Counted from the stretch's first letter, positions 1,683 to 8,117 are shown. The stretch: DNA of 9,963 nucleotides from a virus (IMGVR_UViG_648276656_000002:1-9963); one strand, 5' to 3'. Notes: generated by a model from the sequence alone, not told the origin. Numbers and translations: made by a program.

Positions 1683-1762
1683 CCATCTACATCACTGAGC
1701 TGATAGCAGGCCTGCTGGTAATCGCAGGCCTTTTTATTTGGGGGAGGGTAAATCGTGGCTGA
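1679..1762 (+). CDS. Small hydrophobic peptide, 27 aa ([27 protein letters not shown]), hypothetical
   Basis: ATG overlaps the helicase stop (ATGA). One predicted transmembrane helix followed by a basic tail. Below the ORF-track length cutoff; found by manual reading. Confidence 0.3.
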
Positions 1763-1961
1763 GTTAATTTTCTCTGCATTGAGGATTCTCGGTGCTATGT
1801 GGATGGTGGCGACGTTCATTGTTGTTGCCAGCAGTTTTGTCCGGTTGGTAGGCGAAGGTAAAGACCTGGTGGGTGTGCTTTTCGGTAGCATTTTCCTGTG
1901 GGTGATTATCGGTGTTATGCCTGTTGTCGTAGCAAAAGTGGCGTGGCGTTTTGTGAGTTGA
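1755..1961 (+). CDS. Small membrane protein, 68 aa, two predicted transmembrane helices, hypothetical
   Basis: GTG start at 1755 preceded by GGGAGG at 1741-1746 with 8-nt spacing. Overlaps the 27-aa ORF by 8 nt. Strongly hydrophobic with two roughly 20-residue apolar segments. Confidence 0.5.
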   Translation: MAELIFSALRILGAMWMVATFIVVASSFVRLVGEGKDLVGVLFGSIFLWVIIGVMPVVVAKVAWRFVS

Positions 1962-2415: not shown

Positions 2416-2939
2416 CTATCAAATCAAATACGCCAGCACACGACAAGGACTGCTGGCAAACGCCGCTTTGGCTTTTTGATGCACTGGATATTGAGTTTGG
2501 ATTCTGGCTGGATTCGGCAGCGAGCGACAAAAATGCTCTGTGTGCTCACTGGCTAACTGAGGCCGACGACGCGCTCAATTCTGAGTGGGTAAGCCACGGT
2601 GCAATCTGGAATAACCCACCGTACAGCAATATCAGGCCGTGGGTGGAAAAAGCCGCTGAGCAGTGCATACAACAACGACAGACGGTAGTGATGCTTGTGC
2701 CAGAGGATATGTCTGTCGGATGGTTCAGCAAGGCTCTGGAGAGTGTTGACGAAGTTCGCATCATCACTGATGGACGGATTAATTTTATCGAACCATCGAC
2801 AGGGCTGGAGAAGAAGGGAAACAGCAAAGGCTCAATGCTGCTGATTTGGCGACCGTTCATCAGTCCTCGACGGATGTTTACCACCGTATCCAAAGCGGCA
2901 TTGATGGCGATCGGGCAGGGCGTCAGGAGGGCTGCATGA
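2412..2939 (+). CDS. Phage Dam-family DNA N6-adenine methyltransferase (orphan)
   Basis: Catalytic NPPY motif within IWNNPPYSN, and N-terminal CWQTPLWLF typical of the small phage N6-adenine methyltransferase family. Start chosen at ATG 2412 (ATGA coupling with ninB) rather than the in-frame ATG at 2385. No adjacent restriction endonuclease gene. Confidence 0.85.
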
Positions 2940-3118
2940 GACGACAGCGACGAAGTATCACCGACATCATCTGCGAAAACTGCAAATACCTTCCAACGAA
3001 ACGCTCCAGAAATAAACGCAAGCCAATCCCAAAAGAATCTGACGTAAAAACCTTCAACTACACGGCTCACCTGTGGGATATCCGGTGGCTAAGACATCGT
3101 GCGAGGAATACAAGGTGA
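2936..3118 (+). CDS. ninE: NinE
   Basis: 60-aa ORF starting [23 protein letters not shown], matching lambda NinE from memory. ATG 2936 overlaps the methyltransferase stop. The ORF track gives a longer upstream in-frame extension that I regard as an artefact. Confidence 0.8.
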
Positions 3119-3285
3119 TTGACCCAAATCGAAGTTACGAACAAGAAAGCGTCGAGCGGGCTTTAACGTGCGCTAACTGCGGTCAGAAGCTGCATGTGCT
3201 GGAAGTTCACGTGTGCGCCGATTGCTGCGCAGAACTGATGAGCGATCCGAATAGCTCAATGTACGAGGAAGAAGACGATGAATGA
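3115..3285 (+). CDS. ninF: NinF
   Basis: Core sequence [47 protein letters not shown] matches lambda NinF from memory. Start proposed at GTG 3115 (GTGA overlap with the ninE stop, GAGG at 3103-3106). The ORF-track start at 3073 is also GTG and would add 14 residues with no counterpart. Confidence 0.75.
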
Positions 3286-4000
3286 GTTAATAAATGGCAA
3301 TGCCATCAAAATGACAAGCATTGAAATCGCTGAGTTGGTGGGAAGTCGTCCAGATAACGTAAAAATATCAATAGAGCGCCTGGCTAAATCTGGAGTTATT
3401 CAACTTCCTGCATTGCAGGTTTTCGAAAAAATCAATAACTTAGGACTGCGCCGTAGTGTCGAGGCTTACGTCTTCGAAGGCGAACAAGGTAAGCGCGACA
3501 GCATTATTGTCGTTGCCCAGTTGTCGCCGGAATTCACCGCTCGCCTTGTTGACCGTTGGCGAGAGCTTGAAGAAGCTGCGGTTAATATCCCCAAAACGTT
3601 ACCGGAAGCGTTGCGCCTTGCTGCTGATCTTGCTGAGCAGAAAATGCAACTGGAAAACCAGCTCGCAATTGCCGCACCTAAAGTTGAGTTTGCCGATCGC
3701 GTTGGCGAGGCCAGCGGAATTTTGATTGGAAACTTTGCAAAGGTTGTCGGTATTGGTCCAAACAAACTGTTTGCGTGGATGCGCGATCACAAAATCCTTA
3801 TTGCTTCAGGTTCCCGGCGCAATGTGCCAATGCAGGAATATATGGATCTCGGCTATTTCACAGTGAAAGAAACAGCGGTCAACACAAATCACGGAATACA
3901 GATATCGTTCACCACAAAAATCACCGGGCGTGGTCAACAGTGGCTGACCAGAAAGCTGCTCGATAACGGAATGCTGAAAGTAACAGGGGAGGCTGCTTAA
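3278..4000 (+). CDS. Phage antirepressor-like protein (N-terminal Rha/AntA-like DNA-binding region, C-terminal KilAC/ANT-type domain)
   Basis: 240 aa. N-terminus TSIEIAELVGSRPDNVKISIERL resembles the HTH signature of Rha/antirepressor N-domains. C-terminus (KVVGIGPNKLFAWMRDHKIL ... QEYMDLGYFTVKE ... GRGQQWL) resembles the KilAC domain. GAGG 3265-3268 precedes ATG 3278; an alternative start is ATG 3311. Confidence 0.7.
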   Translation: MNELINGNAIKMTSIEIAELVGSRPDNVKISIERLAKSGVIQLPALQVFEKINNLGLRRSVEAYVFEGEQGKRDSIIVVAQLSPEFTARLVDRWRELEEAAVNIPKTLPEALRLAADLAEQKMQLENQLAIAAPKVEFADRVGEASGILIGNFAKVVGIGPNKLFAWMRDHKILIASGSRRNVPMQEYMDLGYFTVKETAVNTNHGIQISFTTKITGRGQQWLTRKLLDNGMLKVTGEAA

Positions 4001-4290
4001 TGGCTAATCTACGCAAAGAAGCACGCGGCAGAGAATGCCAGGTACGTATTTACGGCGTATGCAATGGTAATCCTGAAACTACAGTTCTGGCACATTACCG
4101 GATGGCTGGAATTTGCGGAACGGGAATGAAGCCTGACGACCTGATCGGCGCATGGGCTTGTAGCGCGTGTCACGATGAAATCGACCGACGCACCCATAAT
4201 CTCGACAACAAAGACGCCAGACTTTACCACCTCGAAGGCGTGATCAGGACGCAGGCGATACTACTGAAGGAGGGGAAGATTAAGCCATGA
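4000..4290 (+). CDS. ybcO: YbcO-like DUF1364 protein (putative metal-binding nuclease)
   Basis: 96 aa. MANLRKEARGRECQVRIYGVCNGNPETTVLAH ... CSACHDEIDRR matches E. coli DLP12 YbcO from memory. Cys/His cluster present. TAATG start overlap with the preceding gene and ATGA overlap with rusA. Confidence 0.8.
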   Translation: MANLRKEARGRECQVRIYGVCNGNPETTVLAHYRMAGICGTGMKPDDLIGAWACSACHDEIDRRTHNLDNKDARLYHLEGVIRTQAILLKEGKIKP

Positions 4291-4649
4291 ACGAATATCA
4301 GTTTGTGCTTCCATACCCGCCGTCGGTGAATACCTACTGGCGAAGACGGGGAAGCCAATACTACATCAGCGATAAAGGCCAGAAATACCGAAAAGACGTT
4401 CAGCAAATCATCCGCCAACTTAAGTTAGACATTTTCACCAAATCACGACTCCGCATCAAAGTAATCGCAGACGTTCCGGACTCCCGCCGCCGCGACCTCG
4501 ACAACATCCTGAAAGGTTTACTCGACTCCCTTATCCACGCCGGATTTGCGGAAGACGACGAGCAATTCGATGACATTCGCGTAATTCGTGGTGTGAAAGT
4601 ACCAGGTGGAAGGCTTGGAATAAAAATCACCGAACTGGAGAACGCATGA
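4287..4649 (+). CDS. rusA: RusA-family Holliday junction resolvase
   Basis: 120 aa, the same length as E. coli RusA. Contains the DSRRRDLDNILKGLLDSL motif with catalytic Asp residues in the family's RRRDLDN context. Located directly after ybcO as in DLP12-type prophages. Confidence 0.9.
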   Translation: MNEYQFVLPYPPSVNTYWRRRGSQYYISDKGQKYRKDVQQIIRQLKLDIFTKSRLRIKVIADVPDSRRRDLDNILKGLLDSLIHAGFAEDDEQFDDIRVIRGVKVPGGRLGIKITELENA

Positions 4650-4834
4650 ACGCCACAATTCAAACGATACCAGAGCTTCTTATCCAGACACGAGGCAATC
4701 AGACCGAAGTGGCAAGGATGCTTTCCTGCGCAAGAGGAACAGTGCTCAAGTACAACCGAGACAGCAAAGGCGAGCGTCACGTAATAGTTAACGGCGTCCT
4801 GATGGTCAAACAGGGCAAAAGGGGAAGGCCATGA
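4646..4834 (+). CDS. ninH: NinH-like small DNA-binding protein
   Basis: 62 aa. GNQTEVARMLSCARGTVLKY ... VIVNGVLMV matches the lambda NinH HTH region from memory. ATGA overlaps at both ends (4646-4649 and 4831-4834). Confidence 0.75.
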   Translation: MNATIQTIPELLIQTRGNQTEVARMLSCARGTVLKYNRDSKGERHVIVNGVLMVKQGKRGRP

Positions 4835-5454
4835 GACTCGAAAGCGTAGCTAAATTTCATTCGCCAAAAAGCCCGATGATGAGCGACTCACCACGGGCTA
4901 CGGCTTCTGACTCTCTTTCCGGTACTGATGTGATGGCTGCTATGGGGATGGCGCAATCACAAGCCGGATTCGGAATGGCTGCATTCTGCGGTAAGCATGA
5001 ACTCAGCCAGAACGACAAACAAAAGGCTATCAACTATCTGATGCAATTTGCACACAAGGTATCGGGGAAATACCGTGGCGTTGCAAAGCTTGAAGGAAAT
5101 ACTAAGGCAAAGGTACTGCAAGTACTCGCAACATTCGCTTATGCGGATTATTGCCGTAGTGCCGCGACGCCGGGCGCAAGATGCAGAGATTGCCACGGTA
5201 CAGGTCGTGCGGTTGATATAGCAAAAACAGAGCAGTGGGGGAGAGTTGTTGAGAAAGAGTGCGGAAGATGCAAAGGCGTCGGTTATTCAAGGATGCCAGC
5301 AAGCGCCGCATATCGCGCTGTAACGATGCTAATCCCCAACCTTACCCAACCCACCTGGTCACGCACTGTTAAGCCGCTGTATGACGCTCTGGTGGTGCAA
5401 TGTCACAAAGAAGAGTCAATCGCAGACAACATTTTGAATGCGGTCACACGTTAG
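4831..5454 (+). CDS. Q: Late-gene antiterminator Q (lambda-type)
   Basis: 207 aa. The whole sequence (MRLESVAKFHSPKSPMMSDSPRATASD ... zinc-binding CRDCHGTGR ... CGRCKG) matches lambda Q as I remember it. Followed by a lambda-like PR'/qut. Confidence 0.95.
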   Translation: MRLESVAKFHSPKSPMMSDSPRATASDSLSGTDVMAAMGMAQSQAGFGMAAFCGKHELSQNDKQKAINYLMQFAHKVSGKYRGVAKLEGNTKAKVLQVLATFAYADYCRSAATPGARCRDCHGTGRAVDIAKTEQWGRVVEKECGRCKGVGYSRMPASAAYRAVTMLIPNLTQPTWSRTVKPLYDALVVQCHKEESIADNILNAVTR

Positions 5455-5496
5455 CAGCATGATTGCCACGGATGGCAACATATTAACGGCATAATA

Positions 5497-5525
5497 TTGA
5501 CTTTTTGAATAAAGTTGGGTAAATT
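5497..5525 (+). promoter_or_regulatory. Late promoter PR' with overlapping Q-utilisation (qut) site
   Basis: -35 TTGACT at 5497-5502, 17-bp spacer, -10 TAAATT at 5520-5525. Sits 43 bp downstream of the Q stop as in lambda. Near-consensus sigma70 elements. Confidence 0.8.
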
Positions 5526-5531
5526 TGACCC

Positions 5532-5725
5532 AACGATGGGTTAATTCGCTCGTTGTGGTAGTGAGATGAAAAGAGGCGGCGCTTACTACCGATTCCGCCT
5601 AGTTGGTCACTTCGACGTATCGTCTGGAACTCCAACCATCGCAGGCTGAGAGGTCTGCAAAATGCAATCCCGAAACAGTTCGCAGGTAATAGTTAGAGCC
5701 TGCATAACGGTTTCGGGATTTTTTA
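5532..5725 (+). ncRNA. PR' leader transcript (lambda 6S RNA equivalent), ending at tR'
   Basis: Runs from the predicted start about 7 nt downstream of the -10 to the tR' hairpin and U-tract. The sequence closely matches my memory of the lambda 6S region. The 5' end is approximate. Confidence 0.6.
5666..5725 (+). terminator. tR' intrinsic terminator
   Basis: Long-range stem AATCCCGAAAC (5666-5676) pairing with GTTTCGGGATT (5710-5720), with internal structure, followed by a T-run at 5719-5724. Confidence 0.8.
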
Positions 5726-5859
5726 TATCTGTGCAACAGGTAAGAGCATTGAACCCGCAGACCTCGCGGAATTGGTGAAAGGTGCCGCGCAGTGCTCTTA
5801 TCGTTGTGGTGAAGCTCAATGGCGAGCTAGCAGATAGGCGACAGTGAAAATACTAGTCA

Positions 5860-5934
5860 TGTAGCTGACCGCCGCGCGTACTGCAATCGGCAGCGCACCG
5901 ATGGAAGCCGGTTCGATTCCGGCCGCCACAACCC
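5860..5934 (+). other. tRNA-like remnant (canonical T-arm, 5-bp anticodon-like stem, degenerate D-arm, no CCA)
   Basis: T-stem GCCGG (5907-5911), T-loop TTCGATT (5912-5918), T-stem CCGGC (5919-5923); the 11-mer GGTTCGATTCC is the classic T-psi-C signature. Upstream 5-bp stem ATCGG (5886-5890) pairs with CCGAT (5898-5902) but its loop CAGCGCA lacks U33. An acceptor-like pairing 5860-5866 with 5924-5930 gives only 5 of 7 base pairs. Confidence 0.35.
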
Positions 5935-6021
5935 AAACTGAGCCGTAGCCACTGGCTATCCTGAATTCATCAGTGATAGTTACGCTGCTGCCTTCTACAC
6001 ATGATCTTCGTGAAAGCGGGT

Positions 6022-6056
6022 GGCAGGAGGTCGCGCTAACAACCTCCTGCCGTTTT
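6022..6056 (+). other. Perfect 10-bp hairpin upstream of S (possible RNA structure or weak terminator)
   Basis: GGCAGGAGGT (6022-6031) pairs with ACCTCCTGCC (6042-6051) around a 10-nt loop, followed by GTTTT. Confidence 0.35.
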
Positions 6057-6176
6057 GCCCGTGCATATCGGTCACGAACAAATCTGATTACTAAACACAG
6101 TAGCCTGGATTTGTTCTATCAGTAATCGACCTTATTCCTAATTAAATAGAGCAAATCCCCTTATTGGGGGTAAGAC

Positions 6177-7449: not shown

Positions 7450-7598
7450 ACATCTGAATTTCACAGCGCATCTCACGCGCATATTACATCACCCGAGCCT
7501 TTCAGAAAGTTGAGCCTGAGAACTGCCGTATATGGTGGCGACCATCTCGGGGCGGCTTTTCTGTGAGACAGGCTCACTTTCTAAAAGGTAAAGACGCT

Positions 7599-8117
7599 AT
7601 GAATCATCAATTGGCTAATCTCGATTTCCGGGACATGGTGGTTGTTTCTGGTGATCGCGTGATCACAACCTCCCGCAAGGTAGCAGCTTACTTCGACAAG
7701 CAGCATCACCACATCATTCAGAAAATCGAAAAGCTAGACTGTTCGGATGAATTTCTAACCAGCAACTTTTCGCGGGTTACCTATGAACACAAGGGTAATC
7801 AGTATGTTGAATATGAAATTTCCAAAGACGGTGCGATGTACATCATCATGTCGTTTACCGGCAAAAAAGCTGCCGCCATCAAAGAGGCGTTTATCAAAGC
7901 ATTTAATTGGATGCGTGACAGGCTGATGGAGATGGCTCACTCATACCAAAGAGAGCACAACGAGTTAATGCTGGAGTTCATGAAGGAAAAGGATGTTGCC
8001 AGTATGTCAGGACGCTTGCTGAACCGCTGGGGCAGGATCAAAAAACCGCAACTCATAGCAAGAATCAAAAGGCTTGAGCAGCAGGCGCAAATATCGATCC
8101 CCGGACTGCCAAAGTGA
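7599..8117 (+). CDS. rha: Rha-family phage regulatory protein
   Basis: Start chosen at ATG 7599 (AAGG ribosome-binding site upstream); the ORF-track start at 7563 is GTG. Rha-family signature: VVVSGDRVITTSRKVAAYFDKQHHHIIQKIEKL ... MSFTGKKAAAIKEAFIKAFNWM. Position between lysis genes and terminase as in P22. Confidence 0.8.
   Translation: MNHQLANLDFRDMVVVSGDRVITTSRKVAAYFDKQHHHIIQKIEKLDCSDEFLTSNFSRVTYEHKGNQYVEYEISKDGAMYIIMSFTGKKAAAIKEAFIKAFNWMRDRLMEMAHSYQREHNELMLEFMKEKDVASMSGRLLNRWGRIKKPQLIARIKRLEQQAQISIPGLPK

Follow-up and report, generated by a model that had tools for sequence, protein, structure and literature searches.

The roi gene of a lambdoid phage carries an intragenic dyad that covaries with a predicted DNA-recognition helix of its own product

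Results

The virus sequence IMGVR_UViG_648276656_000002:1-9963, a stretch of 9,963 nt called the window below, carries on its plus strand at 3278–4000 an ATG-initiated open reading frame (ORF) of 240 aa, identified here as roi, which encodes a two-domain DNA-binding regulator. A first-pass annotation had described an antirepressor-like gene with these coordinates, lying between ninF and ybcO in the nin operon and joined to both neighbours by overlapping start and stop codons, and the ORF listing of the window and the Pfam assignments of the neighbours return the same ORF in the same place. The roi ATG lies 8 nt within ninF, whose TGA stop occupies 3283–3285 (junction sequence ATGAATGA), and the roi TAA stop (3998–4000) has one base in common with the ybcO ATG at 4000 (TAATG), which bears out the coupling. 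The protein is identical to HK022 Roi at 218 of 241 residues (90%; E = 2e-160; full length), shows 89% amino acid identity to HK97 Roi (gp65) and matches PHROG 63 (E = 1.6e-96), and the order ninE-ninF-roi-gp66(ybcO)-rusA-ninH-Q is common to the window, HK022, and HK97. Both the full-length identity and the nin-region position place it in the orthologue group of HK022-type Roi. The flagged gene is the roi of lambdoid phages, and the finding as submitted was already known.

The roi gene was reportedly first described in phage HK022 in 1996 by Clerget and Boccard. The abstract of that work is said to report that Roi binds a site inside its own gene closely linked to a site for integration host factor (IHF), that IHF stabilises Roi binding, and that the C-terminal half of Roi resembles P1 Ant1 and KilA. 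Later papers that cite the 1996 work describe Roi as a DNA-binding protein affecting lytic growth, and HK022 roi is described in such papers as inhibiting phage lytic growth in IHF-deficient hosts.

Sequence variation in roi is concentrated in the segment encoding residues 21–66 (3338–3475, plus strand). Across 92 distinct DNA alleles of roi, conservation is 94–99% in the first 60 nt and in the final two-thirds of the gene, and in the KilAC domain the alignment columns are more than 94–98% identical. Residues 21–66, by comparison, form at least five sharply different classes among otherwise near-identical Escherichia coli alleles, with 32 patch haplotypes. This hypervariable "specificity patch", delimited from the HK022/HK97 DNA alignment and the column conservation of the 92 alleles, contains the predicted recognition helix, the first wing strands, the dyad, and the IHF motif. 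The window allele belongs to class D (GSRPDNVKISIERLAKSGVIQLPALQVFEK...) and the HK022 allele to class C (ESRHSNVKVSIDRL...). The scan of genome contigs yielded 12 loci only, and viral-contig scans with full Roi or with an alignment of N-domains headed by the window sequence recovered close alleles only; the diverse homologues used below came from scans seeded with diverged homologues.

A perfect 6-1-6 dyad, CCTGCA-T-TGCAGG, occupies 3407–3419 within codons 44–48 and is a candidate Roi operator. We compared 235 distinct N-domain coding sequences (loci L001–L414), which reduce to 116 distinct local regions. At the homologous position, a dyad with at least five of its six pairs is found in 106 of the 116 regions and one with all six in 52, compared with a combined frequency of 0.42% for at least five of six at the other positions of the same coding regions (28,474 positions). 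More than 30 palindrome variants occupy the site, including GCGCCGTTGGCGC, CCTCAAATTGAGG, CCCCCAATGGGGG, CCACCATTGGTGG, GCTCAAATTGAGC, CCACAGACTGTGG, and CAGCCGCTGGCTG, and the encoded tetrapeptides shift with them (PALQ, PQIE, PPMV, APLA, PPLV, AQIE, and others). Symmetry is thus kept by compensation while the sequence varies, and therefore a nucleic-acid constraint shapes the Roi protein. The dyad consensus is CCnCCA-N-TGGnGG, with variation concentrated at three pairs. Perfect dyads occur in the window at chance frequency (11 observed against about 10 expected), so the signal shows only in the cross-genome comparison. A second perfect 6-1-6 dyad, ATGGCAATGCCAT (3294–3306, codons 6–10), was considered as a second operator and set aside, being invariant across classes in a window where such dyads are at chance frequency.

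A single copy of the perfect class-specific dyad, always inside roi, is present in the window, in the HK022 genome (40.7 kb), and in a 40.7-kb stretch of E. coli W444 that covers a class-D prophage. The site is unique in both phage genomes: neither the window, the HK022 genome, nor the complete class-D prophage holds an extra perfect copy. One-mismatch matches to the dyad number 7 in the HK022 genome against 2 expected. The HK022 and window dyads have the core CTGCA-T-TGCAG in common; that of the window is a perfect 6-1-6 dyad, and that of HK022 has a mismatch at the outermost pair.

The three variable pairs of the dyad covary with three residues of the protein. Contingency tables and adjusted mutual information were computed for 161 distinct proteins. 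Residue 27 predicts pair 3/11 (N with T:A in 70 of 73, D with G:C in 50 of 51, K with C in 20 of 21, S with A:T in 15 of 16), residue 30 predicts pair 4/10 (R or Q with C:G in 138 of 143, I or V with G:C in 16 of 17), and residue 34 predicts pair 5/9 (R with C:G in 108 of 110; T, D, S, H, or C with A:T in 49 of 50). Each residue is near-deterministic for its own base pair alone, and the three are spaced i, i+3, and i+7 on the predicted recognition helix. The implied contacts, Asn-A, Lys-G, Asp-C, and Arg-G, are canonical amino-acid-base pairings.

The position of the covarying bases in the reading frame bears on how this association can arise. The third base of codon 44, four-fold degenerate in 160 sequences, supplies dyad position 3 and still tracks residue 27 (chi-square p = 6.6e-87, a value uncorrected for phylogeny); coevolution at the protein level cannot explain this association. 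The adjusted mutual information with the dyad is 0.71 for residue 27 and 0.24–0.42 for the nearer variable residues 42, 43, and 49–51, a ranking that argues against simple linkage. In independent, diverse Proteobacterial homologues, residue 27 predicts residue 47, which lies within the dyad codons, as forecast for the protein beforehand (N with E or Q in 77 of 77, S with V in 26 of 27, K with G or V in 16 of 16, D with A in 3 of 3), and E. coli classes with identical flanks still follow the code.

The IHF consensus AATCAATAACTTA (WATCAANNNNTTR) has its sole match in the window at 3430–3442 (plus strand), 10 nt downstream of the dyad. HK022 roi has a consensus match at the homologous position, and the other two matches in the HK022 genome lie in or beside the annotated attP. 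Motif codons I52 (ATC), N53 (AAT), and L55 (TTA) are invariant across five diverged classes, compared with only 1–2 of 13–14 other patch codons for conserved residues (hypergeometric p ~0.007–0.015); these frozen synonymous codons indicate that the motif is constrained at the DNA level. Of 129 motif-bearing sequences, 126 have a spacing of exactly 10 nt between dyad and motif. The interval between the two elements in the window (3419–3430) reads GTTTTCGAAAAA, with the core TTTTCGAAAA as a perfect palindrome common to patch classes B and D, and related strings (TTTCCGAAAG, ATTTCGAAGAA, TCGCCGAAAG) stand there in other lineages.

The two halves of the protein belong to different domain families. 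At the C-terminus, the ANT/KilAC domain (aa 126–228; 3653–3961, plus strand) matches PF03374 over profile positions 1–106 of 108 with 112.8 bits against a cut-off of 25.3 (E = 1.3e-32), as well as PHROG 9438 and 130, so the KilAC-type C-terminus of the first-pass annotation is well founded. The same annotation had proposed a Rha/AntA-like N-terminus, and here the evidence is divided. Phage_pRha (PF09669) aligns over its whole profile (1–91) to aa 12–99 (3311–3574, plus strand) at 20.9 bits, below the 29.9 cut-off. However, PF09669 is present in sibling alleles 91–93% identical to this one and in almost every one of 120 listed distant homologues; PHROG 63, named "anti-repressor Ant", matches the roi product and the window's second Rha-family protein over overlapping profile regions; and an AlphaFold2 (AF2) model of the N-domain resembles MerR-like winged helices. 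On these grounds, membership in the Rha family holds by homology despite the sub-threshold score of this allele.

The fold is accordingly described as a Rha-type, MerR-like winged helix-turn-helix domain on the strength of the profile match, the homologues, and the model. A Pfam scan at E ≤ 0.01 gave only ANT and Phage_pRha, with no match to MerR or MerR_1, and the resemblance to MerR appears to be one of predicted fold and not of sequence family. A sequence search of the PDB gave nothing meaningful (best E = 0.35), and Foldseek against the PDB gave nothing significant (best E = 0.011). A separate AF2 model built from a shallow alignment (30 sequences, at least 88% identical) reached a pLDDT of 39.6 and was dropped for the fold search. 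In the AF2 model, the predicted recognition helix spans aa 25–38 (3350–3391, plus strand), and long helices would join the winged helix-turn-helix domain to the KilAC domain.

The N-module also occurs in other arrangements. In loci from Yersinia, Pantoea, Buttiauxella, and Serratia (L168–L174, e.g., L170:1501-2208), it is fused to an unrelated C-domain of ~130 aa with the motif …RGSVPxGWxGYS…PKMGIFQ… in place of KilAC, and these fusions keep the intragenic dyad and often the IHF motif. Yersinia vastinensis (L169) has tandem paralogues of the Roi N-domain, in which a truncated 108-aa copy (1501–1827) sits immediately upstream of a full-length copy (1824–2534) and overlaps it. The short copy is without dyad and IHF motif. 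The long copy keeps the IHF motif, has only 4 of 6 pairs at the homologous dyad position, and carries a 5-2-5 dyad, ACAAA-GG-TTTGT, ~6 nt downstream.

The roi gene is widespread among lambdoid phages. The DNA of 2900–4400 is 92–95% identical to that of HK140, HK97, HK75, HK620, HK633, HK542, HK022, mEpX1, Kapi1, CUS-3, Gally, and many Shiga toxin (Stx) phages, whose records label the gene roi, "DNA-binding protein Roi"; roi is annotated in the same place in HK022, HK97, HK620, HK140, H-19B, CUS-3, and many Stx phages. Over the whole window, the closest relatives are the P22-like/lambdoid phages Kapi1, Gally, HK97, and CUS-3. The gene is present in 1046 of 5426 complete E. coli genomes (~19%), with up to 4 copies per genome, and the position ninF-roi-gp66-rusA-ninH-Q recurs in 64 of 80 IMG/VR roi loci, the rest mostly ending at the locus edge. 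A 3.9-kb contig labelled "MAG: Bacillota bacterium" (L163, JAEZCC010000011.1) carries a roi 99% identical to that of the window and most likely reflects the mis-binning of E. coli phage DNA into that MAG. In Gally, antisense transcripts running from Q back to roi were detected in the prophage in macrophages, where the sense levels of prophage roi and rha were unchanged (PMC9928086); this antisense transcription could be linked to the candidate Roi-IHF site inside roi.

The slot 3' of ninF is a well-known site of mosaicism, which roi occupies as an accessory and common cassette among several alternatives. In a sample of 80 IMG/VR loci, biased in that it was drawn for ninF alleles closest to that of the window, the gene that begins at the stop codon of ninF is roi in 42, ninG in 24, and an HNH-like gene of 188 aa in 4, and about 10 loci have one of several unrelated ORFs of 70–114 aa followed by ybcO-rusA. 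Alternatives after ninF in a search of phage records are roi, ninG, and ninX followed by ninG. The earlier view of the gene as cargo instead of core broadly stands in view of this mosaicism. The gene is not an unusual insertion, as roi sits in the same place in many phages and is present in about a fifth of complete E. coli genomes. Comparison of the ninF-ybcO junction thus finds roi neither universal nor rare at this position. One roi allele (L146, a59) has a premature TAA at about codon 50, and in a published report, O157:H7 Stx2a phages with sequence types PST1-3 and PST1-6 have IS629 inserted in roi; therefore roi is dispensable in nature.

The genes around roi are tightly packed, with the Pfam order NinB, Dam methylase, NinE, NinF, [roi], YbcO, RusA, NinH, and Q, and those from ninE to Q are all on the plus strand. 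Upstream lie ninE (2936–3118; PF05322, E = 2.1e-43) and ninF (3115–3285; PF05810). The longest ninF ORF begins at 3073, and the start is probably the GTG at 3115, which overlaps the ninE stop as GTGA; the PHROG 672 match starts at residue 14 of the longer ORF, and the 56-aa version of NinF has tblastn matches in 227 phage records. Downstream follow ybcO (4000–4290; DUF1364, putative nuclease and homologue of HK97 gp66; PF07102, E = 1.8e-44; PHROG 131), the Holliday-junction resolvase gene rusA (4287–4649; PF05866, PRK09786 in NCBIfam), which overlaps ybcO as ATGA at 4287, ninH (4646–4834; Phage_NinH), and the antiterminator gene Q (4831–5454; Antiterm). No sigma-70-like promoter is predicted in 2800–4400, inside or flanking roi. 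Since stop and start codons overlap from ninE to Q, this points to transcription of roi most likely as part of the delayed-early operon.

Three further observations concern the rest of the window. A strongly hydrophobic 68-aa ORF (1755–1961, plus strand) lies between a DnaB-like helicase gene and ninB, at a place where HK022 and HK97 have other small genes. The gap of ~720 bp between Q and the holin gene (5455–6176) has no long plus-strand ORF and presumably corresponds to the late promoter and leader. In class-D prophage L416, tRNA-Asn and tRNA-Thr lie between Q and holin; the window has none there, and searches of the window gave no tRNA and no Rfam family match.

Discussion

The explanation that we regard as likely is that roi is an accessory delayed-early gene whose product binds the intragenic dyad and, together with IHF, forms a complex that sets the Roi level. 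Roi, probably as a dimer, would bind the 13-bp dyad in its own coding sequence, and in each half-site, residues 27, 30, and 34 of the recognition helix would read pairs 3, 4, and 5. IHF on the site 10 bp downstream would, in this lineage, complete a Roi-IHF-DNA complex within roi, which may set the Roi level and possibly the flow of transcription toward Q. Loss of IHF would disturb this control, in keeping with the block of lytic growth by HK022 roi and with the Rha phenotype of phi80 and P22. From the sequence comparison, the dyad is probably Roi's own binding site; we infer from the same comparison that binding is by a dimer and that the outcome may be autoregulation or a transcriptional roadblock, in either direction.

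A broader generalisation is that Roi-type N-domains and their operators may form self-contained specificity cassettes of ~130 bp (helix, wing, 13-bp operator, and in some lineages the IHF site) that would be inherited and swapped as a unit. At least 18 dyad core classes occur across Proteobacteria, and the code would run from residue 27 to pair 3, from 30 to pair 4, and from 34 to pair 5. The balance of evidence leans modestly toward this view. The literature searched, which did not extend to the 1996 HK022 Roi paper, contains no study of the Roi operator and no description of an operator code or of specificity cassettes, and the modular operator code and the cassette idea may be new.

The C-terminal domain could add a second function to that of the N-domain. 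Under this proposal, Roi would be a dual regulator like the Listeria phage protein AriS, with its N-domain on phage DNA and its KilAC domain on a host protein (RecA has been suggested as the target), damping the SOS response, and it would be compatible with the N-domain binding the intragenic dyad. In Listeria, SOS is inhibited by the ANT/KilAC domain on its own (Azulay et al. 2022, PMC9043618), and the family sets alternating AntA/B, Bro-N, or pRha domains before a constant KilAC (PMC9043618); Roi has exactly the pRha-plus-KilAC architecture, and its N-module also occurs with another C-domain, which separable functions would predict. However, this evidence comes from Firmicutes proteins distantly related to Roi, and the SOS effect needed over-expression and was not seen at the native level (PMC9043618). 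A dual role of this kind is tenable for Roi but rather unlikely.

The dyad itself might instead be a hairpin in mRNA or single-stranded DNA that acts, for example, on translation or stability, the correlation of residues 27 and 47 then arising from protein coevolution and linkage. Covariation of the stem does not on its own distinguish RNA pairing from DNA symmetry. The innermost pair is frequently G-T, which allows the element to be seen as a stem of 5 bp with a loop of 3 nt, and the RNAfold minimum-energy structure includes this hairpin. However, G-T wobble accounts for only 2 of 29 non-Watson-Crick cells at pairs 1–5 (about 5 expected if random), and the dyad switches include transversions without wobble intermediates. 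Local folding is also unremarkable (z = −1.7; 12 of 200 shuffles as good). The dyad has a defined consensus, and the one-to-one mapping of its three variable pairs to three helix residues would be a coincidence under an RNA model. The 1996 biochemistry, moreover, reportedly puts a binding site for Roi within roi. We consider a hairpin origin improbable and retain DNA recognition by Roi as the explanation of the dyad.

The first-pass annotation had suggested an antirepressor that would bind and inactivate the CI-type repressor of its own phage or of a co-resident prophage and so tilt the lysis-lysogeny decision, a function that we judge very improbable. Its basis is nomenclature, namely the Pfam name "Phage antirepressor protein KilAC domain" and the PHROG 63 label, joined by the KilAC domain carried by the P1/P7 antirepressors Ant1 and Ant2 (PMC9043618) and by the multiple roi copies per E. 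coli genome, which make prophage cross-talk conceivable. However, the sources name Roi a DNA-binding protein and the link to a repressor comes from the family name, while the AriS study calls the exact function of KilAC unclear and found inhibition of SOS and not repressor binding (PMC9043618); because of these two points, the family name is what remains of the antirepressor reading. For a protein that tracks diverse repressors, variation in the surface that binds them would be expected, whereas in Roi the variable part is the DNA-binding helix, which tracks the DNA dyad, and KilAC is nearly invariant. From its position in the delayed-early operon, roi would moreover be transcribed after repression has been lifted. 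The comparison points instead to sequence-specific binding at an operator inside roi.

These results place the value of the locus in the intragenic site. As submitted, the finding is a rediscovery of roi, a gene annotated in dozens of reference phages, and in that form it matters little. The label "antirepressor", as in "anti-repressor Ant" or "phage antirepressor KilAC domain-containing protein", is an annotation habit, and the evidence points to an IHF-linked, site-specific DNA-binding regulator. If confirmed, the covariation would provide a recognition code open to direct test and a collection of repressor/operator pairs that may be orthogonal. Roi-type N-domains and their operators would then constitute a naturally occurring library of orthogonal winged-helix/operator pairs, in which a nucleic-acid constraint dictates residues of the protein's own DNA-binding domain. 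The intragenic operator would also offer a concrete handle on why Roi and Rha proteins turn toxic without IHF.

Relation to known systems

The N-domain of Roi has a modelled fold likeness to MerR-type winged helix-turn-helix proteins (MerR/BmrR/TipAL, RacA, GlnR/TnrA, pSK1 Par, and excisionases). Unlike these, Roi has its candidate site inside a coding region and not in a promoter spacer, and it carries KilAC in place of an effector-binding domain. P1 Ant1 and KilA, the founding KilAC proteins, have the C-terminal PF03374 domain in common with Roi but differ in their N-domains (KilA-N and AntA), and antirepressor activity is a property of the P1 Ant system.

AriS of the Listeria phage phi10403S (Firmicutes) belongs to the AriS-like regulators, which are defined by an ANT/KilAC domain at the C-terminus behind an AntA/B, Bro-N, or pRha N-domain, an architecture that Roi also has. 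The KilAC domain of AriS, the one KilAC domain studied in the literature searched, inhibits SOS when over-expressed, and pRha plus KilAC is one of the three architectures described for the family (PMC9043618). The N-domain of AriS itself is AntA/AntB, whereas that of Roi is pRha (PMC9043618), and an intragenic operator is not described for AriS (PMC9043618), in contrast to the candidate site in Roi.

The Rha proteins of phi80 and P22 (orf201), members of PF09669, are related to the Roi N-domain at the profile level. In published accounts, they inhibit phage growth in IHF-deficient hosts and IHF regulates the gene (Mozola & Friedman 1985; Henthorn & Friedman 1995), the same IHF-dependent phenotype as that published for HK022 roi. 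The second Rha-family gene of the window (7563–8117, plus strand; Phage_pRha 83.9 bits) lies between the lysis genes and terminase, so that this phage has two genes from families reported to be toxic in IHF-deficient hosts. Its product carries an ORF11CD3 C-domain and not KilAC, and its location in the late region also sets it apart from roi. BLASTP finds no similarity between the N-domains of the two window proteins, and the window rha lacks both an IHF consensus and a dyad at a place comparable to that in roi.

The closest relatives are the annotated Roi orthologues of HK97 (gp65), HK620, H-19B, CUS-3, Gally, and the Stx phages, together with HK022 Roi itself. HK022 Roi (241 aa against 240 in the window) is identical to the window protein in its C-terminal two-thirds and has the same flanking genes, and the two differ in residues 22–65, where they belong to patch classes C and D, respectively.

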